A DNA stretch of 52,910 nucleotides from Acidobacteriota bacterium (lineage in GTDB: Bacteria > Acidobacteriota > Vicinamibacteria > Vicinamibacterales > UBA2999): positions 1 through 52,910 of the forward strand of contig JBKPNV010000024.1 in assembly GCA_046732795.1 (NCBI GenBank). The letters are read 5' to 3'. Under the pieces are notes generated by a model. That model made no database searches and was not told the DNA's origin. It saw nothing but the letters and a program-made list of their open reading frames with translations. The translations under genes and the position numbers were made by a program. Below are positions 1,557-38,684 of this stretch, piece after piece; positions within the stretch are counted from its first letter, which is position 1, and every line of letters begins with the position of its first letter.

Positions 1557-2228
1557 ATGCGGAAGTGGCTCGCCTCGGTTGTCATTCTCGCCTTGTCGTT
1601 CGTGGCGATTGGTCAGGCTCAGCGGGGTCGCGGTGCCGGAGGAGCACCGCCGCCACCCAGACCGATCGCTGGTAACGGCGTCGAGGTACCGGGATGGTGG
1701 GCTCGAGTCGACGATATCAAGGAGCCCTCGACTGGATTGAAATTCAGCCCGATGAACGGTGGGCTGCACGCGACGACGGGTCCCAACATCATCTTCTGGG
1801 ATCCGCAGCAGATGGCATCGGGCAACTACACAGTGAAGGCGACGTTCACAGTGACCAAGCCGCCTAGCCACCCGGTTGCGTACGGGCTATTCATCGGCGG
1901 CACGAACCTCGATCAGGACACTCAGAAGTACAGCTACTTCGTGATCCGGGAGGACGCTCAATTCCTGATCAAAAAACGCGACGGCACCGGAACGAGCAAC
2001 GTCGCCGGTGACTGGGCCGCGAATCCTGCGGTCGCGGGTCGTGTGGGCGGTGTGCAGAAAAACGAGCTATCGATTCAAGTGGCCAATGGGCGCGTCAGCT
2101 TCATGGCGAATGGGAAAGAAGTCGCCAGTCATCCTGCGAGCGCGATCGATACGGATGGCGTCTACGGCCTTCGCATCGGCCACGGTATGGATATCCAGAT
2201 CGACGGGTTTGGTGTCACCACGCAATAA
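1557..2228 (+). CDS. Exported beta-sandwich hypothetical protein (DUF1080/concanavalin-like)
   Basis: GGAGG RBS, signal peptide, Gly/Pro linker, alternating beta-strand pattern (YTVKATF, NELSIQV, VSFMANG, YGLRIGH). Fold is inference. Confidence 0.6.
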   Translation: MRKWLASVVILALSFVAIGQAQRGRGAGGAPPPPRPIAGNGVEVPGWWARVDDIKEPSTGLKFSPMNGGLHATTGPNIIFWDPQQMASGNYTVKATFTVTKPPSHPVAYGLFIGGTNLDQDTQKYSYFVIREDAQFLIKKRDGTGTSNVAGDWAANPAVAGRVGGVQKNELSIQVANGRVSFMANGKEVASHPASAIDTDGVYGLRIGHGMDIQIDGFGVTTQ

Positions 2229-2230
2229 AC

Positions 2231-2279
2231 GACACCGGGTGTGATTTCCTCATAAGACGCATGAAATCACACCCGGTGC
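2231..2279. repeat. Palindromic repeat family B copy 1, possible terminator between convergent genes
   Basis: Perfect 16-bp IR CACCGGGTGTGATTTC / GAAATCACACCCGGTG. First 19 nt are identical to 21264-21282. Confidence 0.8.
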
Positions 2280-2290
2280 CTTATCGGGAA

Positions 2291-3640
2291 CTACTGCAGA
2301 GAACTCCGCGCCGGTTGCCCCTCGACGGTGTACGTGAAGAAGCCGATCATCATCTCCTCCCACGTCTGATCGCCCCAGCGCACCACCTTCGTCGGATCCG
2401 GGTTGCTTCGATTCGCAGTGGAGTTGTCGAAGTGCGCGCGGACGTGTAGCTTCGAGCCCTTCGGTAGCGTGAGCGGTTCCGCCAACCAGTAGTCGGTCTG
2501 CCAGCCGAAGTCAAACTTCGGAACCCGCAGCACGACTTCGTTGCGACCATCAGGGTAGATGGCGGTGTAGGTCATGTCCTTGCCGCGGAGATGCATGTGC
2601 GGATGCATCGTCCAGATTCTGACGTCCTCGCCGAAACTCGCCTCCGCCTCGACCTCGTGGTTGGCAGCGCCCGCGGGAATCGCAAACACGGGGTTGGCGA
2701 TTATGCCGGTGCGAATCTCCTGGCGAGGCGGTTCTTTCGCGAAGATCAGGCCGATGCGCGAACGATCGACACCCGGCTTGCCGTTCGTCGTGTAATGCAC
2801 TTGAAAGATCAACGTCGAGCCGGCAGGGATCCGTTTCGCAGTACCGGCCAGATAAACCGGAGCGTCCTCGCCGACGGCCCAATTCACCAGCATGGCATCG
2901 CCACCACCGGGCGCCGCCGAGCGTGCCGATGCGTCCGTGGTTGCCGGCTCGCGCGCCGGCGGCGGCACAGGTGGGGCCACGCCGGCGGGCAGAATCGGCC
3001 TGATCCTGACAACGCTCGGGCGAGCACTCGGCTTTGGTTCCCTCACGTAAACGATGATGTGATGGACGTGAGCGCGATCACCCGCGCGGACCTCACCCGC
3101 CTGCATCCACCGATCCTCGGTGAAGTTGGTCGGGACCTCGAAGTACTGATAGTCGATCGTCCCGGTCGCGGGTATCTGATAGTCGGCCTGCATCTCGAAC
3201 ACGCGATCGGGCGTGCCAATCTGCCAGCCCTCAGGGAACTTCGGCAGTGCGGGAAGATCGGATGGATTGCCTTCGCTCGCGCCGCCAGCCACCCAGCTCG
3301 CAATGGTGTCGATCTCTCTCTGCGTGAGGCTGAGATCGTTGCGGAAGGATCCGTATTGTCTGTCGGCGTGCCACGGCGGCATGACCCGCGTCGTCACCTT
3401 CTCGCGGATCGCGCTCGCCCATGGCCGTGCATCGCGGTACGTGATGAGCGACATCGGCGCGACTTCGCCAGGACGATGGCAGCCGACGCACTTGTTATAG
3501 AAGATGGGCGCGATGTCCCGGCTGAACGTCGGCGATGCGGCGCTCTGTGCGGCCACACCGCCGCTGAGCGCCAGCGCCCCCGCGCCCGAGAGAGCAACTG
3601 CCACGAGGAACACAACCTGGCGAAGGCTGTCAGGTCTCAT
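2291..3640 (-). CDS. Exported heme c + copper type II (PHM/DBH-like) monooxygenase-family protein
   Basis: Signal peptide; CVGCH and MPPW; HVHH, QVHY, HPHMH, EEMM match the CuH/CuM ligand order. ATG3640 lies 4 nt after the upstream stop. Confidence 0.75.
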   Translation of the reverse strand: MRPDSLRQVVFLVAVALSGAGALALSGGVAAQSAASPTFSRDIAPIFYNKCVGCHRPGEVAPMSLITYRDARPWASAIREKVTTRVMPPWHADRQYGSFRNDLSLTQREIDTIASWVAGGASEGNPSDLPALPKFPEGWQIGTPDRVFEMQADYQIPATGTIDYQYFEVPTNFTEDRWMQAGEVRAGDRAHVHHIIVYVREPKPSARPSVVRIRPILPAGVAPPVPPPAREPATTDASARSAAPGGGDAMLVNWAVGEDAPVYLAGTAKRIPAGSTLIFQVHYTTNGKPGVDRSRIGLIFAKEPPRQEIRTGIIANPVFAIPAGAANHEVEAEASFGEDVRIWTMHPHMHLRGKDMTYTAIYPDGRNEVVLRVPKFDFGWQTDYWLAEPLTLPKGSKLHVRAHFDNSTANRSNPDPTKVVRWGDQTWEEMMIGFFTYTVEGQPARSSLQ

Positions 3641-3644
3641 CGAT

Positions 3645-5507
3645 CTACTCCGGGCCGAAGGCCAGTAACACGTTTCCGGGTCTGCTGCCAAACGCCCCGT
3701 ATCCCGAGTTGACGAACACCATACCACCGGCGACGACGGCACCAGGGCCGATCATCGAGGCACCTCTCGCTGGCACCCCGTTGACCGTGGTGAATTCGCG
3801 ATTGCTGTCGAATTCCCACAGCACTTCGCCGGTTGAGGTCGAATACGCCCGCAAGGAGCCATCGTTGGATCCCGAGAATACGGCGCCGGCGATGGCGGTC
3901 ACGGCCGCCGACTGTGCGCCATTGCACCCGGGCACGGAACCGCAGGTCGGTGCAGGTGGCGGTGTAAACCAGGCGCGCGTCCCGGTCGTGAGATTGACGG
4001 CGTGAAGACCTCCCGGCTGCTTGGTCTGGATGTCCGACACCGCGAAGTAGGCGTGCTCGCCATCAGTCGCCGCGCCCCACTCGATTCCACCAAGCGCGCT
4101 GCCCAGCCCGGCGCGATACTGCCAGAGGATCTCCCCGTTCTTCTCGGGGTCCATCGCGAACGCCACACCCGACTTCTGTCCAATCACAATCACGTCCCGG
4201 CCACCAGCGCGCGCAAGCACCGGCGGACTCCCGAAGTCGAAATCGGGACCGACTGATTCGGGGCAATTGGGATTGCCTGCCCGACAGCTGGAGATGTACA
4301 CATCGTTCGCTGTGACCTGCCGCGTCCAGCGAATCGCGCCCGTCGCAAGATCCAATGCGACGACGGCGTCGCTCGAAGACGTGGCCGGTGCACTGTAGGC
4401 GTTCCCGGTCGCCACATAGAGGAGACGACGATTCGCATCGATGGTCGGCGCCGACCAGACGCCCGCGCCTGACGGCCCCCACAACGGAACCCCGGCACCA
4501 CTCGTGCCTCGCCGCTGCGGCGTCTCCGGGATCATGTATGTCTTCCACTCGACGGCACCCGACTCGGCATCGAGCGCAGAAATGCTTCCGCGGAACGAAC
4601 AGCACGGGTACTGCGGATCGGCGCCCTGGGCCTCTTCATAGGAAGACACAGGCACGTAGAGCCGGCCCTCGAAGAACGTCGGTGACCCGGTAATGCGAGC
4701 CGACGGGTGATCGTCGACGCGACGCACCCAGAGCCGGCGGCCGGTCTCCGCATCGAGGGCGTACGCGTTCGCCGCTGTGTCGGCGAAGTACACGACCAGG
4801 CGCGAGCCGCCCGCGGGCGCTACGGCGAGCGCGGTGCGGACACCTCCTGACGCGCTGAAGGTCCAACGGACGCACCCTGTCTTCGCGTCGAGCGAATAGA
4901 CGGTGCCGTTCTGACTGCCGATGAACAACCGGCCCGCGGCCACAGTCGGATGGGACCACGCGACCGATGCATCGGGAAAACCGAAGGCCCACTTCAGTCT
5001 CAATCGCTGCAGATCGGCTGGCGTCAGTCCCGCGCCGTCTGCCGGCTGAAAGCGCGTGTTCGTGGTCGAGGGGCTCCATCCAGTCCATTGCGGCGTTTTC
5101 GCAAAGTCCTCGAGAGGCTCCGGCGTGCTGCAACGTCCGGTCTGCGCTCCAGTGACGTCGCCGGCAATCGCCTTCCCGGTGATGAACTCGGCCACCGCGC
5201 GACGTTCGGCCCCGCTGAGGCGCGAGCCTTGCGGGCGCATCGCGCCAGTCAGCAGACTGTCGATGATGGATTGGGGAGTGCGGGGACGGAGTGTGTCGAG
5301 ACTTGGGGCCCGCGAGTCCGTTGCTCCCGTGTGACAGGTCGCGCAGGACGATTGAAATACCCGGGCGCCATCGGGCGATTGCGCCAACGCAACTGACGCA
5401 CACGCCAGAACTGCACCGCATACAAGAACCGGTCGCAGCAAGGCCGGTGCGGGCGCGACGAAGCCTTTCGCCACACCGCGCCGACCGCGAACGGTGCGCC
5501 TCGTCAT
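3645..5507 (-). CDS. Quinohemoprotein, polyvinyl-alcohol dehydrogenase-like (N-terminal cytochrome c + PQQ propeller)
   Basis: Signal peptide, CATCH, L.LKWAFGFP, CCSFRG, GPSGAGVWS, PDFDFG, A.D..TG..W Trp-docking repeats, GNVLLAF C-terminus. Confidence 0.85.
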   Translation of the reverse strand: MTRRTVRGRRGVAKGFVAPAPALLRPVLVCGAVLACASVALAQSPDGARVFQSSCATCHTGATDSRAPSLDTLRPRTPQSIIDSLLTGAMRPQGSRLSGAERRAVAEFITGKAIAGDVTGAQTGRCSTPEPLEDFAKTPQWTGWSPSTTNTRFQPADGAGLTPADLQRLRLKWAFGFPDASVAWSHPTVAAGRLFIGSQNGTVYSLDAKTGCVRWTFSASGGVRTALAVAPAGGSRLVVYFADTAANAYALDAETGRRLWVRRVDDHPSARITGSPTFFEGRLYVPVSSYEEAQGADPQYPCCSFRGSISALDAESGAVEWKTYMIPETPQRRGTSGAGVPLWGPSGAGVWSAPTIDANRRLLYVATGNAYSAPATSSSDAVVALDLATGAIRWTRQVTANDVYISSCRAGNPNCPESVGPDFDFGSPPVLARAGGRDVIVIGQKSGVAFAMDPEKNGEILWQYRAGLGSALGGIEWGAATDGEHAYFAVSDIQTKQPGGLHAVNLTTGTRAWFTPPPAPTCGSVPGCNGAQSAAVTAIAGAVFSGSNDGSLRAYSTSTGEVLWEFDSNREFTTVNGVPARGASMIGPGAVVAGGMVFVNSGYGAFGSRPGNVLLAFGPE

Positions 5508-5514
5508 CTGGCGA

Positions 5515-5523
5515 AGTCTACCA
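5515..5523 (-). promoter_or_regulatory. Extended -10 promoter (TGG-TAGACT), probably leaderless
   Basis: TAGACT ends 7 nt before ATG5507; no SD sequence. Confidence 0.55.
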
Positions 5524-5577
5524 CCGCGTCAGGGCGGTCATCTCGGCAACGTCGATCAAGTTTGATGCAATCGGGTG

Positions 5578-5943
5578 TCAGACGCCGGTGATTGGACCAA
5601 AGCTTCGAATCGCCGCCTCCTCGTCATGGAAAATCTCGAACACCGTCGTCAGCTTGGTGATGTCCATCAGGTGGTCGGTGCGCTCGGTCGGGTGCAGGAT
5701 CTTGAGCACGCCACCTCCCCGCCTTGTAGTGAGGTATTTACTGACCAACATTCCGATTCCGGCGCTATCGAGTCGTATCACTTCCTTCATGTCGAGCACC
5801 AGCTTGACGCGGCCGGCTTCGACAAGACCGTTCACGGCGTCGCGCAGGATGACGTCGCCGTCCTCGAGCTCGAGCCGGCCAATCAATTGGAGAATCGTGA
5901 CGTCGCCGATTCGACGTTCAACTATCCGCATTCGCGTGCCCAC
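5578..5943 (-). CDS. STAS-domain anti-sigma-factor antagonist (RsbV/SpoIIAA-like)
   Basis: LVLDMKEV..LDSAGIG.LV with the phospho-Ser; ITKL..VFEIF..EE.A C-terminus. Confidence 0.9.
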   Translation of the reverse strand: MGTRMRIVERRIGDVTILQLIGRLELEDGDVILRDAVNGLVEAGRVKLVLDMKEVIRLDSAGIGMLVSKYLTTRRGGGVLKILHPTERTDHLMDITKLTTVFEIFHDEEAAIRSFGPITGV

Positions 5944-6070
5944 GATTTACCCCCACACCTCGCTTGTGTCGGTGATTTCGCCCACGCTCGTCCTGAGTGA
6001 GACCGCCCGTGTATCACCGTGAGTGTGACCGAGGCCCTCCAATACAAGCGAGCGACTGTGTAATGCCCCC

Positions 6071-6934
6071 CTACTTGTCCCCTCCATCGTCCAGATACTT
6101 GATGAGCAACACCTCGTTGCGCGCTTCGTTGTAGATCAGATCGTCTACCAGCGAGAGCGTCATGGCCAGCCCGAACCCGCCGGGGCGAAGTCCCTGCGCC
6201 TCTCGCACAGACAGATGGTGCATCGGGTCGTCGTCGGGGTTCATGATTGCTGCGTGACGCAGCTTGTCGATGTCGAATCCCTCGCCCGGATCGGCGATTC
6301 GGTACAACAGCATCCGCGGCGTCCGCACGCACGCGATGCGCACCGTGCGATTGGGATCGAGCTTGCCACCCCACTCGATTGCGTTGGTCAACAACTCTCT
6401 GAACGCCTGCGCCACCGCCTCGCGAACAGCCTCCGAGAGATCGGCTTCCAGTTGCATGACGAACGACTGGATGCGTTCGGCCACCTCGAGGGTGCACGGC
6501 GCCACAAGCTCGAGCCACTCGGCCTTGGCGGAGATCACCTCGATCGACAAGGCTGACGTGGGTGGCGCCGCCTCGTTGACGACTTCCACGATCGCGTTTG
6601 GCGGGAACGGCTTTCGCAGGTAGCGGTAGGCCTGACGGCGAACGGCTTCGAGCAGCGTCGCCGAAGTGTCGTCGGCGGTCATGACGATGACCAGGGGCGG
6701 CGACGGCAGTTCGCGGACGCGTGCGAGTACGTCGAGTCCGCTCATACTGGGAAGCCCGATGTCGAGCAGAACCAGATCGAACGAGGAGCCCTGGCCCAAC
6801 ATTTCGAGCGCTTCGGGGCCGTCGCCAGCCGACTCGACCCGATGACCGGCCGCCTGGAGCAGTGCCGACAGGACGTGCCGGAGTCCGCGATCGTCGTCGA
6901 CGAGGAGAATGCTGTGATGTCTGGGCTGGGCCAT
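6071..6934 (-). CDS. Receiver domain fused to RsbW-like (HATPase_c_2) Ser kinase/anti-sigma domain
   Basis: ILLVDDD, LLDIGLP, MTA, KPF; then ELLTNAIE.G, IADPGEGFD, GGFGL, YNE..NE. Start taken at ATG6934. Confidence 0.85.
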   Translation of the reverse strand: MAQPRHHSILLVDDDRGLRHVLSALLQAAGHRVESAGDGPEALEMLGQGSSFDLVLLDIGLPSMSGLDVLARVRELPSPPLVIVMTADDTSATLLEAVRRQAYRYLRKPFPPNAIVEVVNEAAPPTSALSIEVISAKAEWLELVAPCTLEVAERIQSFVMQLEADLSEAVREAVAQAFRELLTNAIEWGGKLDPNRTVRIACVRTPRMLLYRIADPGEGFDIDKLRHAAIMNPDDDPMHHLSVREAQGLRPGGFGLAMTLSLVDDLIYNEARNEVLLIKYLDDGGDK

Positions 6935-7139
6935 CGCGAGTCTCTCGCTCGGAATCCGCGATCCAGTAGTGTAATGCTGGCTGCGTTGGACCGCTATGCG
7001 GCTCGTTGAGTAAATCGTCTGCTCTTTAGTGAGCCGCGCGGCGGTCCGCAAGCGCCCGGAGCGCGCCAAATGATACTGGCGATCAGCCACGAATCCGTCG
7101 GGAACAGCGGATTGTCTGGCTGGCACGTGAGGTGAACTG

Positions 7140-10016
7140 ATGGACGAGCGCCCGGTTCAGAACGGCGAAAGCGGCTCCGGCCAACCGCACCAACGTGTGC
7201 TGTTCGAGACGGCCCAGGCGCTCGCCGAATCGGCGACGCTCGAAGAAGCGGTCCCGCGCATGCTCAAGTCGGTTTGCGAGGCGCTCGACTGGCAATGCGG
7301 CGCCATCTGGCAGGTCAACCGCGCGCGCAAAATCCTCCGCTGCATTGGTACGTGGGGAACCCCGGGGCTACCGCTCGACGAGTTCATCACCCTCACCCTG
7401 GCCCAGTCGTTTGAGATTGGCGCCGGGCTGCCGGGACGAGTCTGGGAGCGTCGAGAGCCACTCTGGGTCCGCGACGTGACGCGCGACGAGAATTTCCCGC
7501 GTGCCAGGGTCGCTGACGGGGCGGGGCTTCACTCCGCCTTCGCGCTGCCCATTCTGCAGGGCCGGCGGGTGGGCGGGGTCATGGAGTTCTTCTCCCGGGA
7601 CATGTTCGAGCCGGGGCCGGAATTGCTCACGACCATCACGACGGTGTGCAGGCAAATCAGCCTGTACGTCGAGCGGAAATGGGCGGGAGAGGATCTCGAT
7701 CGGTTCTTTCAACTGTCGCTCGACATGTTCTGTATTGCGACCTTCGACGGCTATTTCGTCCGGGTGAATCCGGCCTGGCAGACGGTGCTCGGCTTCTCCG
7801 AGGAGGAGATGCGTACGTCGCCATTCATGGAGTTCGTGCACCCCGACGATCGGGAGGCGACGACGCAGGCGATGTCGGCGGCGACCGCGGGCGAGCGCGT
7901 CATCGATTTCGAGAACCGCTACCGCGCGAAGGACGGATCCTACAAGCGGCTGCAATGGATGTCCGCACCGTTCGTTCACCAGGGACTGATCTACGCCGTC
8001 GCTCGCGATGTGACGGACCGCCGAGCGGCCGAGGAGGCGCTGCAGCAGAACGCGGAGCGTCTCTCACAGCTGGTCAAGGAGCTCGAGGTGGCACGGCACC
8101 GCGCCGAGCAGGCGACGATGGCGAAAGGAGAATTCCTCGCCAACATGAGCCACGAGATCCGCACGCCGATGAACGCCATCATCGGCATGACCGATCTCAC
8201 GCTGCAGACCCGGCTCACACCGCAGCAACGCGAGTACGTCAAGACCGCGCGCGAATCGGCTGAATCGCTGATGACGATCATCGACGACATCCTGGACGTC
8301 TCGAAGATCGAGGCACGGCGGCTGACGCTCGATCGCACTCCCTTCCGCTTCCGCGATACGGTGGAAGACAGCGTGAAGCTGCTGGCGCCGCGCGCCGATC
8401 AGAAGGGTTTGGACCTGTCGTGCCGCATCGCGCCCGACGTACCCGACGCGCTCGTCGGCGATGGCGGACGGCTGCGGCAAATCATCCTCAACCTGGTGGG
8501 CAATGCGATCAAGTTCACCGACGAAGGCGAAGTCAGCGTGAACGTCACCGTTGACCAGCGTGGCGCCAACGACGTGCGCCTGCGCTTCACGGTGCGGGAT
8601 ACCGGCATCGGCATTCCCGAGGAGAAGCAGTGGGAGATCTTCGGCGCGTTCGTGCAGGCGGACGCCTCCACCACGCGGCGCTACGGCGGCACTGGCCTCG
8701 GGCTGACCATCTCGACGCAACTGGTGGAGATGATGGATGGGCGCATGTGGCTGGACAGCGAACCTGGCAAGGGCAGCCAGTTCCATTTCGTCGCGCGTTT
8801 CGAGATCGCCCGCGACGCCGTCGAGCCGATTTCGCCGACGGCGAACAACCTGCGCAATCTGCATGTGCTCGTCGTCGACGACAACGCGACCAACCGATTC
8901 ATCCTGTCGGAAATCCTGGCGAGCTGGCAGATGCGCGCCACTGCCGTCGACACGGCGACTGCCGCACTCGAATCGTTGCACCGGGCCGCGCAGCAGGGCG
9001 AGCCGTTTCACTTGCTGTTGACCGACGCCCTGATGCCCGACGTCGATGGATTCACTCTCGCGCAGCAGGTCGCTCGCGACGACCGGCTGGGCAAACCGAA
9101 GGTGATCCTCCTGACATCGGCGGGAGCATCCGCCCTGAAAGGACGGGGCGGTGCCTTCGCAGCCAAGTTGGCGAAACCGGTGAAACAGTCAGACTTGCTC
9201 GACGCCATCGTGACAGCATTTGCTACGCCGCAGCCGTCGCGGCGATCGCGAGCAAAGACGCAGCGACACGACTCACGCGCCACGCGGACACTGCGTGTGC
9301 TGGTGGCTGAAGACAATGCCACCAATCAGGCGCTGGTGTCGGCGCTGCTCAAGCAGAAGGGTCACCGCGTAACGATGGTCGGCAACGGGCGTCTGGCTGC
9401 CGACCGCGCAGTGCTCGAGTCGTTCGACGTCATCCTGATGGATGTGCAGATGCCGGAGATGGGCGGGCTCGAGGCGACGGCCCTGATTCGCGATCACGAA
9501 CGAACGGCCGGCGGGCACATACCGATCGTCGCATTGACGGCGCGCGCGATGGCCGGCGATCGTGAACAGTGCCTCGCTGCCGGGATGGATGCGTACGTCT
9601 CCAAACCGCTGCGGCCGGACGAACTGTTTTCCGCCATCGACTCCGTCGTGCGCGGGCAACTGGATACGACCGAGCTACCTGCTGCCGCAGGTTCGGTCGA
9701 TCGCCGGTCGCTGCTCACGGCTTTCGGCGGACGAATGGATCTCCTCAAGCATGTCGTCGACGTGTTCCTGGAGGACACGCCATCGATCCTGTCGCGCCTC
9801 AAACAGGCGCTCCAGGACAACAACGCCGCCGACGTGACCTCCGCTGCTCACGCGCTCAAAGGATCCATCGGACTCTTCTCACAGGGCGAGGCGTACGAAT
9901 GCGCGCGCCGGCTGGAGCAACTGGGACGAAGCGGTGATCTCACCGACGGCGAGTCCGTCCTCAAGGAACTTCTGGTGAGTGTGTCGAAACTGACGACCGA
10001 ACTCCGTGCCCTGTGA
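7140..10016 (+). CDS. Hybrid sensor histidine kinase GAF-PAS-HisKA-HATPase-REC-REC-HPt
   Basis: [45 protein letters not shown], two receivers, AHALKGS HPt. No TM segment, so cytoplasmic. Confidence 0.92.
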
Positions 10017-21822: not shown

Positions 21823-23727
21823 CTACTTCCCGTCCACCGAGAACGCGAGCAATGCGTTCTGGTCGCTCGCGCCCGTCGCCATGACGATGAACTGTTTCCC
21901 CGACTTCGTGCGATACGTCATCGGGTTCGCCGTATTGTTATACGGGATCTTCTCCCGCCAGACCTCCTTGCCGGTCTTGGTGTCGAACGCATAGAAGTAG
22001 CCGTCGCCCCCTCCGATGAAGATGAGGCCGCTCTTCGTCACCATCGCGCCACCGAGGTTGCCGGACGACCCGAGGCGATCGGGCAGCGCAACGCCCTTGA
22101 GCAGCGGGTGATTGCGAACCGCCGCGTTGTCGCCCAGCGGCACTCGCCATGCGATTTCACCGCGATTCAGATCGATTGCCACGAGGACGGCGTAGGGGGG
22201 CGATACCAGCGGCAGACCACCCGGCAAGTTCGCGTTCGAACGGTCGGCGAAGACGTGTGAATAGTCCACCTGGACCAGCGGATCGGAGCCGTTGTTCTTG
22301 CCCACGGCATTCACGCCGATCGCGTTGTTGGCGCGCACGATCAGGTAGCCGGTTTCGGGATCGAAGGCGGCACCGCCCCAGTTTGCGCCGCCGCCCTGAC
22401 TCGGCCGCTGCAGCGTTCCCCTGAGCGATGGCGGCGTGAACATCGGGCCGATGCGGAACTTCTGCATCTGCTCCTGCGCGAGCTTTTTGATCTCCGGCGT
22501 CAGATCGTTCGCATCGTCGAGCGTCACGCCCTGGTCGACGAACGCACGCGGCTTGGTCGGAAATGGCTGCGTGGGATACGGCTTCTCTCCTGGCACATCG
22601 GTGTCCGTCGGCACCGGCCGCTCGACGATCGGCCACACCGGAGTGCCGGTGACGCGATCGAAGACGAAGGTGTCACCGCGCTTGCTGACTTGCGCCACTG
22701 CATCGATCCGCTTGCCGTCGACGGTGATTGTGATGAGCGTGGGCTGCGTCGGGAGGTCCCAGTCCCACAGACCGTGATGCACGGTCTGGAAGTGCCACTT
22801 CATCTTCCCCGTCGCCGCCTCGAGACAGACAAGCGACTCGGCGAACAGGTTCGCACCGGGCCGATTACCACCGTAGTAATCGCTCGTCGGCGTGGACGTC
22901 GGCAAATACAGGAGTCCACGCTGTTCGTCGACCGCTATCGGCGCCCAGACGTTTGCGTGTCCATTCCTCCGCCACGACTCGTTCTCCCATGTCTCCGCGC
23001 CGGGATCCGTCGGCGATTGCGGGATCGTCGAGAACGCCCACACACGCTGTCCCGTGCGCGCGTTGAATGCCTGCACGTAGCCCATCGGATCGGAAAGCTG
23101 CACGCGATCGGGAACCTGGCTGCCGACGATGACGAGGTCGCGATAGATCACCGGTGGCGAGCTCTGGGACACGTGCGTCACGTCGCCAATGCGAGCCAGG
23201 CCGTCTGTCAGTGAAACCGCGCCGTTGTTGCCGAACGATGCGACCGGCTTGCCGGTTGCGGCGTCCAGCTGTACGAGCCGATGGCGGCTGTTGAGGAAGA
23301 TGCGCAGCTGTCCCCCATCCCGCCAGGTGGCGGTGCCGCGCAGCTTCCATCCACTCCCCGAGAGCAACTGACCAAGCTCGTACGCGTGCCCATCGAATCG
23401 CCACTTCTCCTGACCGGTCTCGGCATCGAGCGCGGCGAGGCTGTTGTACGGCGTCGTTACGTAGAGCGTGCCGTCGACCATCAACGGCGTACTTTCGAAC
23501 TGCCCGGGCGTCGTCCCGTACTCTTTCAGCGGCGTCTCCCAATGCTTCCACTGCCAGGCAACGTGCAACCTCGACAGCTTCGCCGCATCGATGTCGGTCA
23601 GCGGTGAGTAGCGGGAGCCCCCCGCATCGTTTGCGTAGTGCGTCCACTCGACCTGGGGAGATTGGGCGCGCACCACCGAGAGCAACCCCACCGCGACGAG
23701 ACCCAGCAACCAGATTCGTCGAGCCAT
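21823..23727 (-). CDS. Exported PQQ-dependent glucose-dehydrogenase-family protein
   Basis: RYSPLTDI, ESTPL, VHHGLWDWD, GGANWGG, PPY, ANPMTY...GKQF. Start ATG23727. Confidence 0.9.
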   Translation of the reverse strand: MARRIWLLGLVAVGLLSVVRAQSPQVEWTHYANDAGGSRYSPLTDIDAAKLSRLHVAWQWKHWETPLKEYGTTPGQFESTPLMVDGTLYVTTPYNSLAALDAETGQEKWRFDGHAYELGQLLSGSGWKLRGTATWRDGGQLRIFLNSRHRLVQLDAATGKPVASFGNNGAVSLTDGLARIGDVTHVSQSSPPVIYRDLVIVGSQVPDRVQLSDPMGYVQAFNARTGQRVWAFSTIPQSPTDPGAETWENESWRRNGHANVWAPIAVDEQRGLLYLPTSTPTSDYYGGNRPGANLFAESLVCLEAATGKMKWHFQTVHHGLWDWDLPTQPTLITITVDGKRIDAVAQVSKRGDTFVFDRVTGTPVWPIVERPVPTDTDVPGEKPYPTQPFPTKPRAFVDQGVTLDDANDLTPEIKKLAQEQMQKFRIGPMFTPPSLRGTLQRPSQGGGANWGGAAFDPETGYLIVRANNAIGVNAVGKNNGSDPLVQVDYSHVFADRSNANLPGGLPLVSPPYAVLVAIDLNRGEIAWRVPLGDNAAVRNHPLLKGVALPDRLGSSGNLGGAMVTKSGLIFIGGGDGYFYAFDTKTGKEVWREKIPYNNTANPMTYRTKSGKQFIVMATGASDQNALLAFSVDGK

Positions 23728-23729
23728 AG

Positions 23730-23890
23730 TCAAACTCCCAACTCCCACCTCCCAAGCCAGCTCATTGATGGAGTCAGGGCGTTGGAGTCGTGGAAGAAGG
23801 GATTCTAGTCCCGATCGAGTCCCGGATCGCGACTCCCGACTCCCGGGCCCGACTTCCGAGTCCCGAGCCCCGAGTCTCGAGCCCCGAGAT
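23730..23890. repeat. Heptamer tandem arrays (ACTCCCA and CCCGAGT types)
   Basis: AACTCCCCAACTCCCACCTCCCAA and about 10 degenerate 7-mers (GAGTCCC/GACTCCC/GAGCCCC) between divergent genes. Confidence 0.7.
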
Positions 23891-25356: not shown

Positions 25357-26349
25357 CTAGCGGCGAGAACCTTCTGCGGCGCGGGCGCCGCTGAGAATAT
25401 GTGGCACCGCGTAGTTGCCTTCGTGGCACGCGAACTCGAGCACCGGCTCGGCGTCGGTCCTTGTCAACGGCATTGAGAACGTCCATGGCCGCGTCCATGT
25501 CGCCGGGTCGTTCACAGTGACGGCCCATTCGACTTTGCCGGCAGACGTCGGCGTAAACCGCTCGACCAGCTTGAGCGTCGCGGCGTTGGCGTTCCGGTAC
25601 GTGCTCCTATCTTTGTAATTCGTCGATTCGATCACGAGCGCATTGCCGTCCCAGCGGCCGCGAGTGTCTCCCATCTCGAAACCGATGGCCTTCGCCACAT
25701 GAGGGCGTCCGTCGAGCGGGATGATGCGGACATCGTGAACCAGTTCGTAGCGAATCGCCACCAGCCCGGGCGCCTGCACGATCTCGTACGAGTTACCGAG
25801 AATGTGCGGCATCATCGCACCCGGTACGCCGCGTGTGATGCAGCGCTCCCACAAATCGAAATCATCGATACTGCGAAAGCTCGACTCAGGATCGAAGCTG
25901 CTCGCCTCGCGCGATCTGGCATTGACGATGCCTTGAATGCCGGTGTCCTGGAACGGGTCCGGCGGCCCCATGCGCTGTTGTGCGGCGGCCGTCATCGGCG
26001 GAATGCGACCGTCCGGCGGATCGACGATCAACCACGCGCGGCTGCCCTTTGTGACCTCGAGCGTGTCGCGAAACTGATACGGACCGACACCCGCCGCCCG
26101 CTCGAGCACCTGTTTGTTTCGCCTGGCGAGCACATCGGCCAGTTCCGAACCCGCGACATCCTCGACCCGACGCCCGGCGAACTGGTCGGGACGCTCGAGC
26201 GGCGTACTCTGCTCGTATTTGTTAGTGTAGGTCCCCTGCAGATCGGGATCGCCCCATGGCGTCCGTGGCGGCGAATAGGGCTTCGGCGTCTGTTGCCCGG
26301 CTACGGCTGCCGACGCGAGAAAGACAGTGACCAGAATCGGCCTGAGCAC
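25357..26349 (-). CDS. WGDPDLQG/CHEGN family paralog 2
   Basis: True start probably GTG26349 (signal peptide follows); PWGDPDLQG, ERC, LEFACHEGNY. The ORF-track extension to 27123 is antisense to the opposite gene. Confidence 0.8.
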   Translation of the reverse strand: MLRPILVTVFLASAAVAGQQTPKPYSPPRTPWGDPDLQGTYTNKYEQSTPLERPDQFAGRRVEDVAGSELADVLARRNKQVLERAAGVGPYQFRDTLEVTKGSRAWLIVDPPDGRIPPMTAAAQQRMGPPDPFQDTGIQGIVNARSREASSFDPESSFRSIDDFDLWERCITRGVPGAMMPHILGNSYEIVQAPGLVAIRYELVHDVRIIPLDGRPHVAKAIGFEMGDTRGRWDGNALVIESTNYKDRSTYRNANAATLKLVERFTPTSAGKVEWAVTVNDPATWTRPWTFSMPLTRTDAEPVLEFACHEGNYAVPHILSGARAAEGSRR

Positions 26350-26435
26350 AGAATTCTTATACGCTCTGGGCTGCCTGGCGGCAACACCGTTGACGCCGAC
26401 CTCTGGGAGGCGCATGATCACCCCCGTCGCAGACG

Positions 26436-26459
26436 GGTCCGGCTGAAGCCGGACGCTGC
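26436..26459 (-). repeat. GTAG-type REP (family F), best-preserved palindrome
   Basis: GGTCCGGCTGAAGCCGGACGCTGC; stem GTCCGGCT / AGCCGGAC. Confidence 0.7.
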
Positions 26460-26479
26460 GTACAAAGGAGCACGTCACG

Positions 26480-27405
26480 ATGGTCCGGACCCGTCCCACC
26501 TGGACTCGGCGGTTCCTGATTTTCTCGGCGGTGCTACTCGGCACGCTGCTCGGCATCGCGGCAGCAGCCAACGCCGACCAAACGAACACGCCCACCGCTG
26601 TCACCTTCACCAAGGACGTCGCGCCAATCCTGCAGACAAATGTCAGGCGTGCCATCGTCCCGGTTACATCGCTCCGATGGCGCTGATGACATTTGCCGAG
26701 ACCCGCCCGTGGGCCCGCGCGATCAAAGCGCGCGTTGTCGCCCGACCGATGCCGCCCTGGCACATGGATCGAACCGTCGGCATCCAGCATTTCGAAAATG
26801 ATCGATCGCTCAGTGACCAGCAGATCGACACAATCGCGCGATGGGTCGACGCGGACGCGCCCGAGGGCGACCCGCGCGACATGCCGCCGCCCAGGAAGTT
26901 TCCCAACGAGGACGTGTGGGGATTTGCGGATCGGTTTGGTCCACCCGATCTCATCGTGCGTTCGACTCCGTTCACCGTGCCCGCGGTCGCGCAGGACGCG
27001 TGGCACAAGCCGGTCGTTGACACCGGTCTGACGGAGCCGCGTTGGGTTCGCGCCATCGAGATCAGGCCCGGGACCGTGAAGGGCCGCCGCGTCACGCACC
27101 ACGCCGTCGCGAGGCTGATCCATGACGAACCAGGATCGCGCGAGCCACGAGCCAATTCAGCACCCGGTCCGGACTCCGGCGACGTCGGCCCGGGACTGTT
27201 CATGGAATGGGCCGTCGGGAAGCAGGGTGAGCTCGCGCTACCGAACAGCGGCAAGCTGATGCTGCCCGGATCGAAGATCCTGTGGGACATTCACTACTCC
27301 GCCGTGGGCGAAGAGATCACTGACTTCGTCGAGCTCGGCATCTACTTTTATCCGAAAGGACAGGAGCCCAAGTACCGCCAGGTCCTCGCCTCGTTCAGCG
27401 GATGA
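26480..27405 (+). pseudogene. Frameshifted, C-terminally truncated paralog of the heme c/copper monooxygenase
   Basis: AAGGAG RBS + signal peptide + TFTKDVAPILQ, then a frame change near 26636-26640 into CQACHRPG...MPPW...THH...IHY. Stops before the HxH/M domain. Confidence 0.8.
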
Positions 27406-34361: not shown

Positions 34362-36161
34362 ATGTCCATAAGACTGGGATTGGCGATCTCGAGTGCCTTG
34401 CTTGGAAGCAGTCTGCTACTGACCGCGCAGGTGAAGGAGTTCCGGCCAGTGACGGAGGCAATGCTCCGCAATCCCGCGCCTGGCGACTGGTTGAACTGGC
34501 GACGCACCGACAACGCGTGGGGCTACAGCCCGCTCGAACAGATCAACAAGCAGAATGTCCAGCAGTTGCAGCTCGCGTGGTCGTGGTCAATGGACGACAC
34601 TGGCGCCCAGGAGGCTGCTCCGCTGGTCTACGACGGCGTCATGTATCTGCCGAATCCGCGCGGCGTCATCCAGGCGCTCGACGCAGCGACAGGCGATCTG
34701 ATCTGGGAATACCGCCCGGGCGCGGCACCGGCGGCCGCGCCATCAGGACGGGGTGGAGGCGAACAGACCGACATCCCTCGCCTCGCGCAGCGACCCGCGA
34801 GCGGAGGGGGCGACCTCGGACGCGGGATCCAGAAAACGCTCGCCATCTTCGACGACAAGATCTTCGGCACGACCAACGACGCGCACATCGTCGCGTTGAA
34901 CGCGCGAACCGGGAAAGTCGTCTGGGACGTCAAGACCGCCGACGACAAGCTCGGATACGAATACACGGCCGGCCCGATTGTCGTTCGCGGCAAGGTCATC
35001 GCGGGGATCACCGGCTGCAGCCGCTACAAAGACGATGTTTGCTTCATCAGCGGGCATGATGCGGCGACAGGCAAGGAGCTGTGGCGAACGTCGACGATCG
35101 CGCGACCGGGCGAACCTGGCGGGGACACCTGGGGAGATCTGCCACTCGCCTTCCGCGCTGGCAGCGATGCGTGGGTCACGGGCAGCTACGATGCAGCGAC
35201 GAATCTCGTGTACTGGGGAACGGCGCAAGCCAAGCCGTGGGCACGGGCCGTTCGCGGTACCGACGGCGCAGCGCTTTACACGAATTCCACGCTGGCGCTC
35301 GATCCAGACACTGGAAAGATGAAGTGGTTCTATCAACACCTGCCTGGCGAGTCGCACGACATGGACGAAGTGTTCGAAAACGTGCTCGTCGACATCGGTG
35401 GACGCAAGTCGCTCTTCAAAATGGGCAAGCTTGGCATCCTGTGGCAGCTCGATCGCGAGAGCGGCGCGTTCATCCGCGCGACCGATCTTGGCTATCAGAC
35501 CCTCGTCGATGTCGACGCCCCGACCGGCAAGGTGACGTATCGGGCGGGCAAAGTCCCCGAGGTCGGCAAGGAAGTCGATTGGTGTCCCAGCACCGCCGGG
35601 TTCAAGAGCTGGCGAGCGATGGCATTCAGTCCGCAAACCAATGCGATGTATCTGCCGCTCAGTCTGAGCTGCGAGAAAGCGACGTTTGGCCCCACTGAGA
35701 AACGTGTCGGCGGGGGCGGCACCGGTCCGGTCCGTCGCCGTGACTACAAGCACCCGGCATCGGACGGGAGCCTCGGTGAGTTCCAGGCGCTCGATATCAA
35801 ATCGGGCAAGACACTGTGGCGGTACCGCACGCCGTCTCCAATCAACACGGCTGCGCTCACAACGGCCGGTGGCGTCGTCTTCGCGGGTGACTGGGATCGG
35901 CACGTCTATGCCTTCGACGCGTCCAGCGGAAAGATCCTGTGGCAATCCAGGCTGCCGACCTCGGCACAGGGATTCCCGGTGAGCTATCTCGCGAAAGGCA
36001 AACAGTACATCGCTGTGCCCGCGGGCATTGGCGGCGGGAGCTGGTCGACGCTGTTGACGCCGGAGCTCGCGCCGGAGATTCGCCGCCCCAACAGCGGCAA
36101 CTCGGTCCTCGTGTTCGCCCTGCCAGGCGGCGCGACGTCCGGTGCGCGATCGACCCAGTGA
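34362..36161 (+). CDS. Exported PQQ-dependent alcohol-dehydrogenase-family protein
   Basis: PVT.AML.NP..GDWL.W, YSPL.QI, APLVYDG.MY, W.TGSYD, LYTNS..ALD..TG..KW.YQ, HDMD, CPS..G, GKQY.AV. Confidence 0.88.
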   Translation: MSIRLGLAISSALLGSSLLLTAQVKEFRPVTEAMLRNPAPGDWLNWRRTDNAWGYSPLEQINKQNVQQLQLAWSWSMDDTGAQEAAPLVYDGVMYLPNPRGVIQALDAATGDLIWEYRPGAAPAAAPSGRGGGEQTDIPRLAQRPASGGGDLGRGIQKTLAIFDDKIFGTTNDAHIVALNARTGKVVWDVKTADDKLGYEYTAGPIVVRGKVIAGITGCSRYKDDVCFISGHDAATGKELWRTSTIARPGEPGGDTWGDLPLAFRAGSDAWVTGSYDAATNLVYWGTAQAKPWARAVRGTDGAALYTNSTLALDPDTGKMKWFYQHLPGESHDMDEVFENVLVDIGGRKSLFKMGKLGILWQLDRESGAFIRATDLGYQTLVDVDAPTGKVTYRAGKVPEVGKEVDWCPSTAGFKSWRAMAFSPQTNAMYLPLSLSCEKATFGPTEKRVGGGGTGPVRRRDYKHPASDGSLGEFQALDIKSGKTLWRYRTPSPINTAALTTAGGVVFAGDWDRHVYAFDASSGKILWQSRLPTSAQGFPVSYLAKGKQYIAVPAGIGGGSWSTLLTPELAPEIRRPNSGNSVLVFALPGGATSGARSTQ

Positions 36162-36788: not shown

Positions 36789-36916
36789 TTGTAGTATTGC
36801 CGGACCGAACTACACTGCCGCTCGCCTGTGCCTGGGGGACTCCGGGCCAAAGTCACGCTGACATCATGGCCTGTCTCACTCAGGACAGCGTTGGCGAAAT
36901 CAGCGGCACAAGCGAG
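36789..36916 (+). promoter_or_regulatory. Promoter (TTGTAG-16-TACACT) followed by a multi-stem 5' leader
   Basis: -10 at 36811-16; closing stem 36821-31 / 36906-16 encloses several hairpins. Confidence 0.45.
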
Positions 36917-36932
36917 TTCGTGGAGTAAACAG

Positions 36933-38684
36933 ATGCGCCATCACTCACGGAAGCTGACGACGTCAACCTGCCTTGTCGTACTTGTCGCGTCCGCCATCAC
37001 GCTGTCCGGCCAGTACTCGCTCACGGTCAACAAGGACCGGCTGATCAATTCGGACAAAGAGCCGCAGAACTGGCTGCTGATGAACGGCGACTACGGCTCG
37101 CTGCGCTACTCGAGGCTCACGCAGATCAACCGCGACAACGTCAAGAACCTGCGCATGGTGTGGGCGATGGCGCTCGGCGGGATGCAGGACGTCGGGCAGA
37201 ACGGTCCCGAGAACGAGATCAATCCGCTCATCGACAACGGTTTCATGTACACGAGCGACGGCTGGGGCACGATCTACAAGATCGACGCTCGCGACCCGAA
37301 TCGTGGCAAGTTCGTCTGGGTCGCAGACCCCGGCGTGCCGCATGAGGGCAACGCTTCGCGGACGCGCGGCATCGCGCTGTGGGAAGACAAGGTGCTGGCC
37401 AACCTGCCCGACGGCCGCGTCATCGCCATCAACCGCGAGAACGGCGAGATCGTCTGGGACAAGAAGATCGCCGTGAAGAACGAGTTCGGCGGCCAGGAGC
37501 GGCTCTCGGCCGCACCGCTCGTCGCCGATGGCAAGGTGCTCATCCAGAACGGCGCCGGCGACGCTGGCACACGCGGCTGGGTTGCCGCGCTCGACGTGAA
37601 CACCGGCAACGAGCTGTGGCGCTGGTACACCGTGCCCAAGCCGGGCGAGCCCGGCAGCGAGACGTGGAAAGACGATCACAACGCGTGGAAAACCGGCGGA
37701 GGCGGCGTCTGGCAGACCGGCTCGTACGATGCGGCACAGAACCTGTACATCTTCGGTACCGGCAATCCCGTCCCCATTTACGATCCGCAGTTCCGTCCCG
37801 GCGACAATCTCTACACCAACTCTGTCGTCGCGCTGAACGTGGCCACCGGCAAGATGGCGTGGTACTTCCAGTACACGCCGAGCGACTCGTGGGATTACGA
37901 CGAGGCCGGCGTGTTCATGCTCTACGACACGACGCTGGGCGGACGGGCGCGGAAGGTCGTGGGCCATTACGCGCGCAACGGCTTCTTCTATACGGTGGAC
38001 CGCACCAACGGCCGGTTCATCGCTGCCGAGAAGTACGTGAACGATCTCAACTGGACCAAGGGCATCGATCAGGAAACCGGCAAACCCGTCGACTACAACC
38101 CGAAACTCGACGTGCAGGTCTACAACCCGGAAGCGCGCGCGCTGCGCGGCGATCCCAAGAAGCGCACCTGCCCGACCTGGCACGGCGGTGTCGCGCATCA
38201 GCCGATGGCCTACAACCCGGTGAAGAAGATCGCGTATGGCGTGGGGACCGAGGGCTGCTTCTCGCAGAACGGCGCCGCTGTTGGCGTGTTGTCGAAGGAT
38301 GGGGGCATGGACAACAAGAACAGCCAGCAGCGGCAGTACAGCAGCGACTTGTACTACGGCTCGCTGACCGCGTTCGACGCGGTGAATCACAAGGTGCTGG
38401 CGAAGGCAATCACGGAAATCGAGATTCGATCCGGCGCGCTGGCGACGGCCGGCGGTGTGGTGTTCACCGCGCTGCAGGATGGCTGGGTCGTGGCCTACAA
38501 CGACGAGACGCTCGAGGAGCTGTGGCGCTTCAACGTCGGCACGCCGCTCAAGGGCGCGCCGGTCACGTACGCAATCGGGCCGAAGCAGTACCTCGCCGTG
38601 CAGGCCGGCGGCCGTCACCTGCATCCCGTGAACTGGGACAAGCTGGAGAATTCAAGCTACCTGTTCGTGTTCGCGTTGAATTGA
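36933..38684 (+). CDS. Exported PQQ-dependent methanol/ethanol-dehydrogenase-like protein
   Basis: GGAG RBS; EPQNWL..GDY...RYS.L.QIN..NV.NL, W.TGSYD, GTGNP, RPGDNLYT, WDYD, RNGFFY, CP, APVTY. Confidence 0.9.
   Translation: MRHHSRKLTTSTCLVVLVASAITLSGQYSLTVNKDRLINSDKEPQNWLLMNGDYGSLRYSRLTQINRDNVKNLRMVWAMALGGMQDVGQNGPENEINPLIDNGFMYTSDGWGTIYKIDARDPNRGKFVWVADPGVPHEGNASRTRGIALWEDKVLANLPDGRVIAINRENGEIVWDKKIAVKNEFGGQERLSAAPLVADGKVLIQNGAGDAGTRGWVAALDVNTGNELWRWYTVPKPGEPGSETWKDDHNAWKTGGGGVWQTGSYDAAQNLYIFGTGNPVPIYDPQFRPGDNLYTNSVVALNVATGKMAWYFQYTPSDSWDYDEAGVFMLYDTTLGGRARKVVGHYARNGFFYTVDRTNGRFIAAEKYVNDLNWTKGIDQETGKPVDYNPKLDVQVYNPEARALRGDPKKRTCPTWHGGVAHQPMAYNPVKKIAYGVGTEGCFSQNGAAVGVLSKDGGMDNKNSQQRQYSSDLYYGSLTAFDAVNHKVLAKAITEIEIRSGALATAGGVVFTALQDGWVVAYNDETLEELWRFNVGTPLKGAPVTYAIGPKQYLAVQAGGRHLHPVNWDKLENSSYLFVFALN

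Follow-up and report, generated by a model that had tools for sequence, protein, structure and literature searches.

A quinohemoprotein dehydrogenase gene adjoining a cytochrome c-fused PHM/DBH-type copper protein gene in a soil acidobacterium: a proposed two-gene periplasmic redox unit

Can a copper protein of the PHM/DBH type be fed with electrons through a heme, from a dehydrogenase encoded next to it, instead of by ascorbate? To our knowledge, the non-coupled two-copper monooxygenases, namely peptidylglycine alpha-hydroxylating monooxygenase (PHM, the core of PAM), dopamine beta-hydroxylase (DBH) and tyramine beta-hydroxylase (TBH), are known as ascorbate-driven animal enzymes, with roles in the synthesis of noradrenaline and of amidated hormones. 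In PHM and DBH, ascorbate delivers the electrons to the HH..H site (CuH), and O2 is bound at the HxH..M site (CuM). The question is raised by two neighboring genes, called here g1 and g2, in a contig of 52,910 nucleotides (JBKPNV010000024.1, assembly GCA_046732795.1) from an Acidobacteriota bacterium of the order Vicinamibacterales; this whole stretch is referred to below as the window. The first gene codes for a quinohemoprotein dehydrogenase of the polyvinyl alcohol dehydrogenase (PVADH) kind and the second for a PHM/DBH-type core with a cytochrome c domain joined to it. We propose that they make up a two-gene periplasmic redox unit of this soil bacterium.

Both genes, with all their parts described below, are on the minus strand. 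The exported PVADH-type quinohemoprotein dehydrogenase g1 (3645..5507, 620 aa) was delimited from its open reading frame (ORF) and translation, Pfam and Foldseek, and its TAG stop occupies nt 3647-3645. It is followed, after a spacer of four nucleotides (ATCG, 3641..3644), by the ATG of g2 (2291..3640, 449 aa), an exported cytochrome c with a PHM/DBH-type two-copper monooxygenase-like core, as assigned by family profile, AlphaFold2 and Foldseek. The signal peptides were recognized by eye from the translations as hydrophobic leaders of the Sec type. That of g1 comprises residues 1-42 (5382..5507) and ends in VALA, residues 1-21 having a pLDDT below 50, and that of g2 comprises residues 1-32 (3545..3640), with a predicted helix at residues 5-25 of low pLDDT. 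A preliminary description, made from the sequence alone, had seen two exported genes 4 nt apart, heme c plus a pyrroloquinoline quinone (PQQ) propeller in the first, and in the second CxxCH, MPPW, HH, H, HxH and M in the order of the PHM copper ligands. Each of these features was recovered, and we consider the domain assignments of both genes to be very probably right.

The heme c domain of g2 (residues ~36-125, 3266..3535), placed by its invariant motif residues and by the Pfam matches of the family, carries CVGCH (residues 51-55, nt 3476-3490) and MPPW (residues 87-90, nt 3371-3382), of which Met87 is the likely sixth heme ligand. Then comes an N-terminal beta-sandwich (residues ~140-300, 2741..3223) equivalent to the CuH, or electron-entry, domain, with H193-H194 (nt 3059-3064) and H282 (nt 2795-2797), and a C-terminal beta-sandwich (residues ~305-440, 2321..2728) equivalent to the CuM, or O2-binding, domain, with HMH (residues 348-350, nt 2591-2599) and M430 (nt 2351-2353). 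In an alignment of 50 homologues, 36 to 86% identical to g2, the residues C51, C54, H55, M87, P88, P89, W90, H193, H194, H282, E429 and M430 are invariant, as is a D405/N406/N410/N413 motif (nt 2402-2428), and H348 and H350 are retained in at least 90%. In a wider set of 163 family genes taken from the surveyed loci, all six copper positions are intact in 140 and CxxCH in 162. Given this conservation across both sets, the ligand motifs are not there by chance.

The relationship to PHM and DBH was found at the level of sequence profiles and of predicted structure. A profile of the g2 family matched human DBH (4zel) at E=3.7e-7 over both beta-sandwich domains, with HH, HY and PHxH of the family in register with HH, HY and HTH of DBH in the HMMER alignment. 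In the DBH chain, the aligned residues stand at 223/224, 294 and 373/375; if 39 is added, they would correspond to H262/H263/H333/H412/H414, which we take to be its copper ligands. Five of the six copper-ligand positions of g2 thus align with human DBH ligands. The sixth, the invariant Met430, lies inside the match to Cu2_monoox_C (PF03712) but beyond the end of any printed DBH alignment. A direct phmmer search of g2 against the PDB sequences gave nothing relevant, and only the family profile reached DBH. For the heme region, the same profile gave two weak matches, one to hydrazine synthase alpha in its heme domain (5c2v, E=4.7e-4), the other to a single-heme cytochrome c (4rlr, E=0.0027). Among 50 g2 relatives, Pfam models were matched at E<=0.01 as follows: PF03712 in 37, PF01082 in 5, PF13442 in 41 and Haem_bd (PF14376) in 14.

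The AlphaFold2 model of g2, built on the 50-sequence alignment (pLDDT 90.5, pTM 0.85), shows four predicted helices in residues 39-118 and, after them, a pair of all-beta domains. Its only weak region is a Pro/Ala-rich loop at residues ~200-247 (nt 2900-3043). With these scores the heme domain is confidently placed against the core, and the high pTM suggests a fixed arrangement of the two. In a Foldseek search of the PDB with this model, ranks 1 to 31 were all PHM or DBH (3mll, E=3.1e-13; 4zel_A, E=4.9e-13), and the next fold was PNGase (E=3.2e-5). TM-scores, normalized by target length, were 0.53-0.66 for PHM chains and 0.35-0.41 for the longer DBH chains, at 13-19% sequence identity to the solved PHM/DBH structures. 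The predicted fold is thus that of two tandem beta-sandwich (jelly-roll) domains. Since family profile, model, Foldseek and conserved ligands agree, g2 combines, on sequence and predicted structure, a cytochrome c with a PHM/DBH-type core in which all the ligand residues are present in the expected pattern.

The likeness of g2 to PHM, DBH and TBH (PF01082 plus PF03712) consists of the two consecutive beta-sandwiches and the ligand order HH...H, HxH...M, five positions of which are in register with DBH. As to differences, g2 is bacterial, predicted to be periplasmic and, unlike the animal enzymes, equipped with a c-type heme domain at its N-terminus; it lacks DOMON and PAL domains; its reductant would presumably be a cytochrome and not ascorbate; and it has the D405/N406/N410/N413 motif of its own family. 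Because it also remains below the Pfam gathering scores and carries the added heme domain, we consider g2 a bacterial variant related to PHM/DBH rather than a plain member. Metal loading and oxygenase chemistry are predicted for g2, which is probably an O2-activating monooxygenase.

In g1, a class-I cytochrome c domain (residues 45-112, 5172..5375; PF13442 at residues 45-109) contains the heme motif CATCH (residues 55-59, nt 5331-5345) and Met90 (nt 5238-5240), and a PQQ-type beta-propeller (residues ~135-620, 3648..5105) was assigned by profile match to 1kb0 and by fold match. The Pfam models Cytochrome_CBB3 (40.1 bits), PQQ (PF01011, 97.5 bits) and PQQ_2 (98.8 bits) all score above their cut-offs. 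C55, C58, H59 and M90 are invariant in 34 homologues, as are E291/E292, C302-C303, D402, D422 and D424 in the propeller, and N369 is found in at least 90% of them. A profile of the 34 relatives had its best PDB sequence match in the quinohemoprotein alcohol dehydrogenase (ADH) 1kb0 (E=6.9e-33), where E291/E292 and the Asn of TGN (N369) align with stretches that we take to hold the Ca2+ ligands of the PQQ site. The AlphaFold2 model (pLDDT 87.4, pTM 0.84) retrieved PQQ- or lanthanide-dependent alcohol and methanol dehydrogenases at all of Foldseek ranks 1 to 28, with PedH the best (E=1.8e-27) and quinohemoprotein ADH and methanol dehydrogenase among the further top matches, to E of about 1e-20. 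The invariant D402, D422 and D424 are candidates for the Asp of the PQQ/Ca2+ site, and g1 is predicted to be loaded with PQQ.

Homologues of g1 are named "polyvinyl alcohol dehydrogenase (cytochrome)" in JGI and "PQQ-binding-like beta-propeller repeat protein" in NCBI. A PQQ gene on a plasmid of Sphingopyxis sp. 113P3 is 41.3% identical to g1 (92% coverage, E=2e-128); it is preceded by a gene for a hypothetical protein and followed by that for an MFS transporter and then, two genes downstream, by that for a c-type cytochrome. Judging from the strain and from this gene order rather than from the annotation of the record, it would be pvaA. Sphingopyxis sp. 113P3 is a degrader of polyvinyl alcohol (PVA). 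According to the review PMC11644497, PVADH depends on PQQ and has a deduced heme c site, and the 113P3 strain has a pva operon for PVADH, oxidized-PVA hydrolase and a cytochrome c that takes the PVADH electrons. The architecture of g1 is the same as that of PVADH (cytochrome) (EC 1.1.2.6; PvaA of Pseudomonas sp. VM15C and of Sphingopyxis sp. 113P3), namely signal peptide, N-terminal heme c and PQQ propeller in ~620-670 aa, and in both cases the dehydrogenase is accompanied by a gene for a cytochrome c domain, the operon cytochrome c in 113P3 and the downstream g2 here. However, the g1-g2 unit contains no gene for an oxidized-PVA hydrolase, and its candidate acceptor is a cytochrome-copper oxygenase fusion instead of a small soluble cytochrome. 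PVA is an unlikely natural substrate of g1 in a soil acidobacterium.

Type II quinohemoprotein ADHs (1KB0, 1KV9 and 1YIQ) also have a PQQ propeller and one heme c within the same soluble polypeptide of the periplasm, but their cytochrome domain is C-terminal and that of g1 is N-terminal. Moreover, their vicinal Cys-Cys aligns with a stretch of g1 without Cys, the C302-C303 of g1 being next to the Glu aligned with their Ca ligand, and the position of their catalytic Asp is unmatched in the g1 alignments. On its sequence, then, g1 is a quinohemoprotein dehydrogenase of the PVADH kind with an N-terminal heme c.

The electron path that we propose starts with the oxidation of an alcohol-type substrate at the PQQ of g1, from which two electrons would pass to its own N-terminal heme c and then to the heme c of g2. 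The latter would feed CuH (H193, H194 and H282) and subsequently CuM (H348, H350 and M430), where O2 would be activated and a C-H bond of the g2 substrate hydroxylated, so that one two-electron turnover of PQQ would pay for one O2 activation. g2 would thus be a non-coupled two-copper monooxygenase with a fused heme c in place of ascorbate. The CuH-equivalent domain is the one to which the heme domain is joined, immediately in front of it, and the best-supported reading of this protein is that heme c replaces ascorbate as the electron entry. By analogy, g1 would be the obvious electron source for g2 in this orthogroup, because it is encoded four bases upstream, has an exit heme of its own and has a relative that reduces an operon cytochrome c.

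A comparable logic of dehydrogenase or cytochrome, heme and copper oxygenase is described for the cytochrome domains of the fungal cellobiose dehydrogenase (CDH) and PQQ pyranose dehydrogenase (PDH), which reduce copper lytic polysaccharide monooxygenases (LPMOs) (PMC6472588), and for a bacterial c-type cytochrome domain, CjX183 of Cbp2D, which reduces bacterial LPMOs of the AA10 type (PMC8981238). LPMOs differ from g2 in being mononuclear, with a histidine brace, an unrelated fold and no heme of their own, and the fungal cytochromes are b-type; g1 and g2 both have c-type heme, and g2 has two PHM-type copper sites. As the fold found by Foldseek for g2 is that of PHM/DBH and not the histidine-brace fold, the pair may function in a similar way but is not a member of the CDH/PDH-LPMO systems. 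Electron transfer from g1 to g2 is suggested by the adjacency of the genes and by the likeness to PVADH with its cytochrome c and to these LPMO pairs, and the direction of the flow and direct transfer from heme to heme are proposed along with it. For the complete chain, including direct transfer from g1 to g2, our confidence is tentative and falls slightly short of even.

How far the pair is conserved was surveyed in the 80 best g2-family loci from species-representative genomes, which were searched for both proteins, and a tree of 163 g2-family genes was built with MAFFT and FastTree, leaving out the frameshifted locus L042. In this tree the g2 of the window falls in a clade of 22 sequences with a support of 1.0, and g1 is directly upstream of g2 in the window and in 12 other loci of the clade; counting L042, the pair is kept in 13 of the 22 orthologous loci from other genomes. 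The flanking genes are common only to the four closest loci and the other nine conserve nothing but the pair, which indicates that g1 and g2 move as a unit. The spacer between them, in 14 loci where they are adjacent (the 13 orthologous ones and L068), ranges from -4 to 148 nt to the nearest start codon, or is at most ~100 nt if an in-frame ATG is used, and is 3-4 nt in five to seven of these loci, depending on the choice of start codon. A second clade of eight loci, mostly from Blastocatellia, has a g1-like gene (40-46% identity) adjacent once and within 6 kb five times; six of the eight hence have such a gene adjacent or near, in a gene order different from that of the window. In total, a PVADH-type gene occurs within 6 kb in 22 of the 80 family loci against about one expected, a comparison in which related genomes are not independent and the expectation is simple arithmetic from the density of PVADH-type genes in the genome of the window.

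In some of these loci the genes are disturbed. In L035 (~5551-5559) and L042 (~4561-4597 and ~6866-6876), g1 or g2 matches come in two overlapping or adjacent pieces, which suggests frameshifts or assembly errors in these contigs of metagenome-assembled genomes. L032, L034 and L036 all keep g1-g2 and have in addition a degenerate g2-like gene (~1600-2700, minus strand; 27-30% identity), divergent and ~1.5 kb upstream of g1, in which the copper ligands are replaced (pattern RAL..).

A number of observations weigh against the proposed chain. Some concern the families and cofactors. The Pfam match of g2 to PF03712 (residues 338-437) reaches 19.1 bits against a cut-off of 23, that to Cytochrome_CBB3 reaches 18.6 against 27, and the N-terminal PHM/DBH model PF01082 had no match to g2 in the Pfam scan. 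No NCBIfam model passes for g1 or g2, TIGR03075 scoring 101.8 on g1 against a cut-off of 480; none of the curated thresholds that either protein does pass would assign it a function. The position of the catalytic Asp (WD(Y/W)D) is Ile, Ser or Val in g1 in two alignments, the second made with hhalign against another PQQ enzyme of the window. We tentatively read this as a variant active site, since the characterized PVADH belongs to the same family. In the genome, 93% complete, PqqB scores only 35 bits against a cut-off of 245, and PqqC was not found, which is weak evidence because the PqqC control was equally silent in all control genomes.

The remaining points against it come from the genomic neighborhoods. 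The pair is absent in 9 of the 22 orthologous loci, one subclade of seven and two single loci, which amounts to about three losses of g1, and the genes upstream of g2 at these loci, where recognized, are unrelated (UvrC and HNH endonucleases). One genome has a g2 orthologue, yet none of the 150 candidates scored there, out of 190, was of the PVADH type at E<=1e-50; in another the best g1 homologue (61% identity) is ~1.5 Mb away from g2. The genome of the window has 14 g2-family loci and six PVADH-type genes, adjacent at this locus only: none of the 13 other g2 paralogues adjoins a PVADH-type gene, the flanks of the five other PVADH-type paralogues contain no g2-like gene, and on one other contig a g2-family and a PVADH-type gene are 8 kb apart. 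The flanks of three PVADH-type loci in two other genomes are likewise without a g2-like gene. When 40 other genomes of the order were examined, eight of them yielded nine further PVADH-type loci. Downstream of these there is no g2-like gene in any case, and upstream there is one, with 28% identity, at a single locus. Finally, no fusion of a PQQ domain to the g2 family was seen in 10 long representatives or in 74 longer homologues, a weak negative, the usual fused partner of the long members being an AhpC/TSA redoxin (9 of the 10 and 47 of the 74).

In an alternative view, g2 is a heme-fed copper oxygenase of the PHM type for which g1 does not serve as a dedicated electron donor. The donor would then be the periplasmic cytochrome c pool or other proteins, the electrons of g1 would go to the respiratory chain, and g1 would adjoin g2 through a shared family of substrates (hydroxylation followed by alcohol oxidation) or through regulation. 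The persistence of g2 orthologues where g1 is distant or not found fits this view, and so does the lack of a PVADH-type neighbor in 58 of the 80 loci. The same is true of the general habits of the family, often fused to redoxins and not to dehydrogenases and, in its more distant members, mostly found in tandem arrays of two to six copies, which speaks against a general link to g1. On the other hand, the retention of the pair in differing contexts with very short spacers points beyond co-regulation, and the g1-g2 layout recalls the cytochrome c gene that strain 113P3 has in its pva operon. At the 17 other PVADH-type loci described above (five, three and nine), no CxxCH ORF lies within 1.5 kb; a general link of the g1-g2 type is thereby disfavored, and a heme-protein gene right after the dehydrogenase is specific to g1-g2. 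We regard g1 as a non-dedicated neighbor as a serious possibility, although on the doubtful side. The chain suggested in the preliminary description, from substrate through PQQ and two hemes to copper, is supported as to its domains, the tight linkage and the 13 of 22 loci that keep the pair; the nine orthologous loci without g1 and the missing PQQ fusions speak against an obligatory link.

A second alternative is that g2 keeps the PHM/DBH fold and ligands but is no C-H hydroxylase, acting instead as an oxidase or peroxidase-like enzyme, in the detoxification of reactive oxygen or nitrogen compounds, or as a copper-dependent electron-transfer protein, the heme being there for that chemistry. 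The frequent fusion of its relatives to the peroxiredoxin-type AhpC/TSA domain would fit peroxide chemistry, and the invariant D-N...N...N motif is specific to the family. Moreover, 22 of the 163 family genes, typically the last of an array, retain CxxCH but have lost the copper ligands, so the heme domain has a role of its own; this, too, counts against a general link of the family to a g1-like donor. The Arg that presumably anchors the substrate carboxylate in PHM, two residues before HxH by the numbering that we assume, does not seem to be conserved in g2; in that register, glycine-extended peptides are not indicated as its substrate. Against this, the complete set H,H,H and H,H,M, including the Met characteristic of CuM, is kept in 140 of 163 genes, the only significant structural relatives before PNGase-like folds are the monooxygenases PHM and DBH, and the heme domain adjoins CuH, where electrons would be expected to enter. 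We consider a non-hydroxylase unlikely.

Returning to g2 as a heme-fed monooxygenase with g1 as its donor, the two reactions could form a closed loop that needs no external reductant. g2 would hydroxylate an unactivated C-H bond of a substrate from the soil, for example in an alkyl or polymer chain, and g1 would oxidize the resulting secondary alcohol to the ketone, returning from heme to heme exactly the two electrons for the next O2 activation, with the net reaction R2CH2 + O2 -> R2C=O + H2O. We consider this special case unlikely. If true, g2 would be the first member of the PHM/DBH class from bacteria that does without ascorbate and has a defined partner, and it would open the way into a family that numbers more than 18,000 sequence clusters.

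The g2 family is large and bacterial, with the PHM/DBH fold and ligands and a c-type heme added at the electron-entry side. In an exhaustive scan of the representatives of clusters at 50% identity, 18,692 matched at E<=0.001, 3,514 of them at E<=1e-30. Among 8,000 scored candidates, 7,942 were relatives of g2 at E<=0.001, the best 120 being 69-97% identical. Where names are given, they are "hypothetical protein" or "cytochrome c [Vicinamibacterales bacterium]", and the single relative in the plasmid collection, from Chondrinema (30.7% identity), is also a 'hypothetical protein'. As the preliminary description had supposed, no characterized example came to light: we found no study of this bacterial family in the literature searched, which did not extend to supplementary files and most subscription journals, so that a published description may still exist. 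If its members are active oxygenases, soil Acidobacteriota would hold a large undescribed set of periplasmic O2-dependent hydroxylases, with 14 copies in this genome, of relevance to the turnover of soil organic matter and to biocatalysis. Since the conserved adjoining quinohemoprotein is a concrete and expressible candidate electron donor, the locus makes a so far orphan family accessible to assays with two defined proteins.

The family also shows a variety of architectures and arrangements. The commonest longer form consists of an AhpC/TSA redoxin, cytochrome c and a PHM-like core (P0123-P0251 and P0393-P0466 in our set). Additional C-terminal modules include alpha/beta-hydrolase or esterase, LRR, ankyrin, GDSL lipase, MBOAT, FG-GAP/VCBS and EF-hand domains, and ~16 proteins of ~820-890 aa resemble two fused copies. 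Arrays of three to six g2-family genes were seen in Blastocatellia and related metagenome-assembled genomes (L050, L052-L054, L060, L064, L067, L070, L076, L077, L084, L086, L093, L094 and L097-L100). The last copy of an array, ~26-35% identical to g2, keeps the heme motif and has lost several copper ligands (HCHLHL, LSRLF-).

Around the pair, a consensus scan of positions 2100-6200 gave no promoter-like sequences and three terminator-like ones against 2.3 expected. The sequencing runs that hold the locus are soil and rhizosphere DNA metagenomes only, with no RNA run listed. Ahead of g1, on the minus strand, are a STAS anti-sigma-factor antagonist gene that ends 70 nt before it (5578..5943) and a response regulator with an RsbW-like HATPase_c_2 domain (6071..7126), both identified with Pfam, and the gene of a hybrid histidine kinase (7140..10016) points away from these two. 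By their domains, these genes look like a partner-switching regulatory module. The response regulator and STAS genes are syntenic with the pair only in the four closest loci (L021-L023 and L042) and are probably not part of the g1-g2 unit. A secreted protein of 223 aa (1557..2228, plus strand), convergent with g2, was considered as a fixed partner and rejected, being present only in the four closest loci; it has no Pfam match and has two paralogues in the genome (38-41% identity).

Further along the window there is a second g2-family gene at ~26635-27405 (plus strand), inside the ORF 25699..27405. It is 33% identical to g2 over g2 residues 49-309 and retains CxxCH, MPPW, HH and HY; the similarity ends after the first copper domain and a C-terminal domain was not recognized, so by its sequence it may be a divergent or broken paralogue of g2. 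The window also contains three more genes for PQQ-propeller dehydrogenases (21823-23748, minus strand; 34362-36161 and 36828-38684, plus strand), one of them with a full-length Pfam PQQ match of 662.8 bits, which makes this contig rich in periplasmic quinoproteins.

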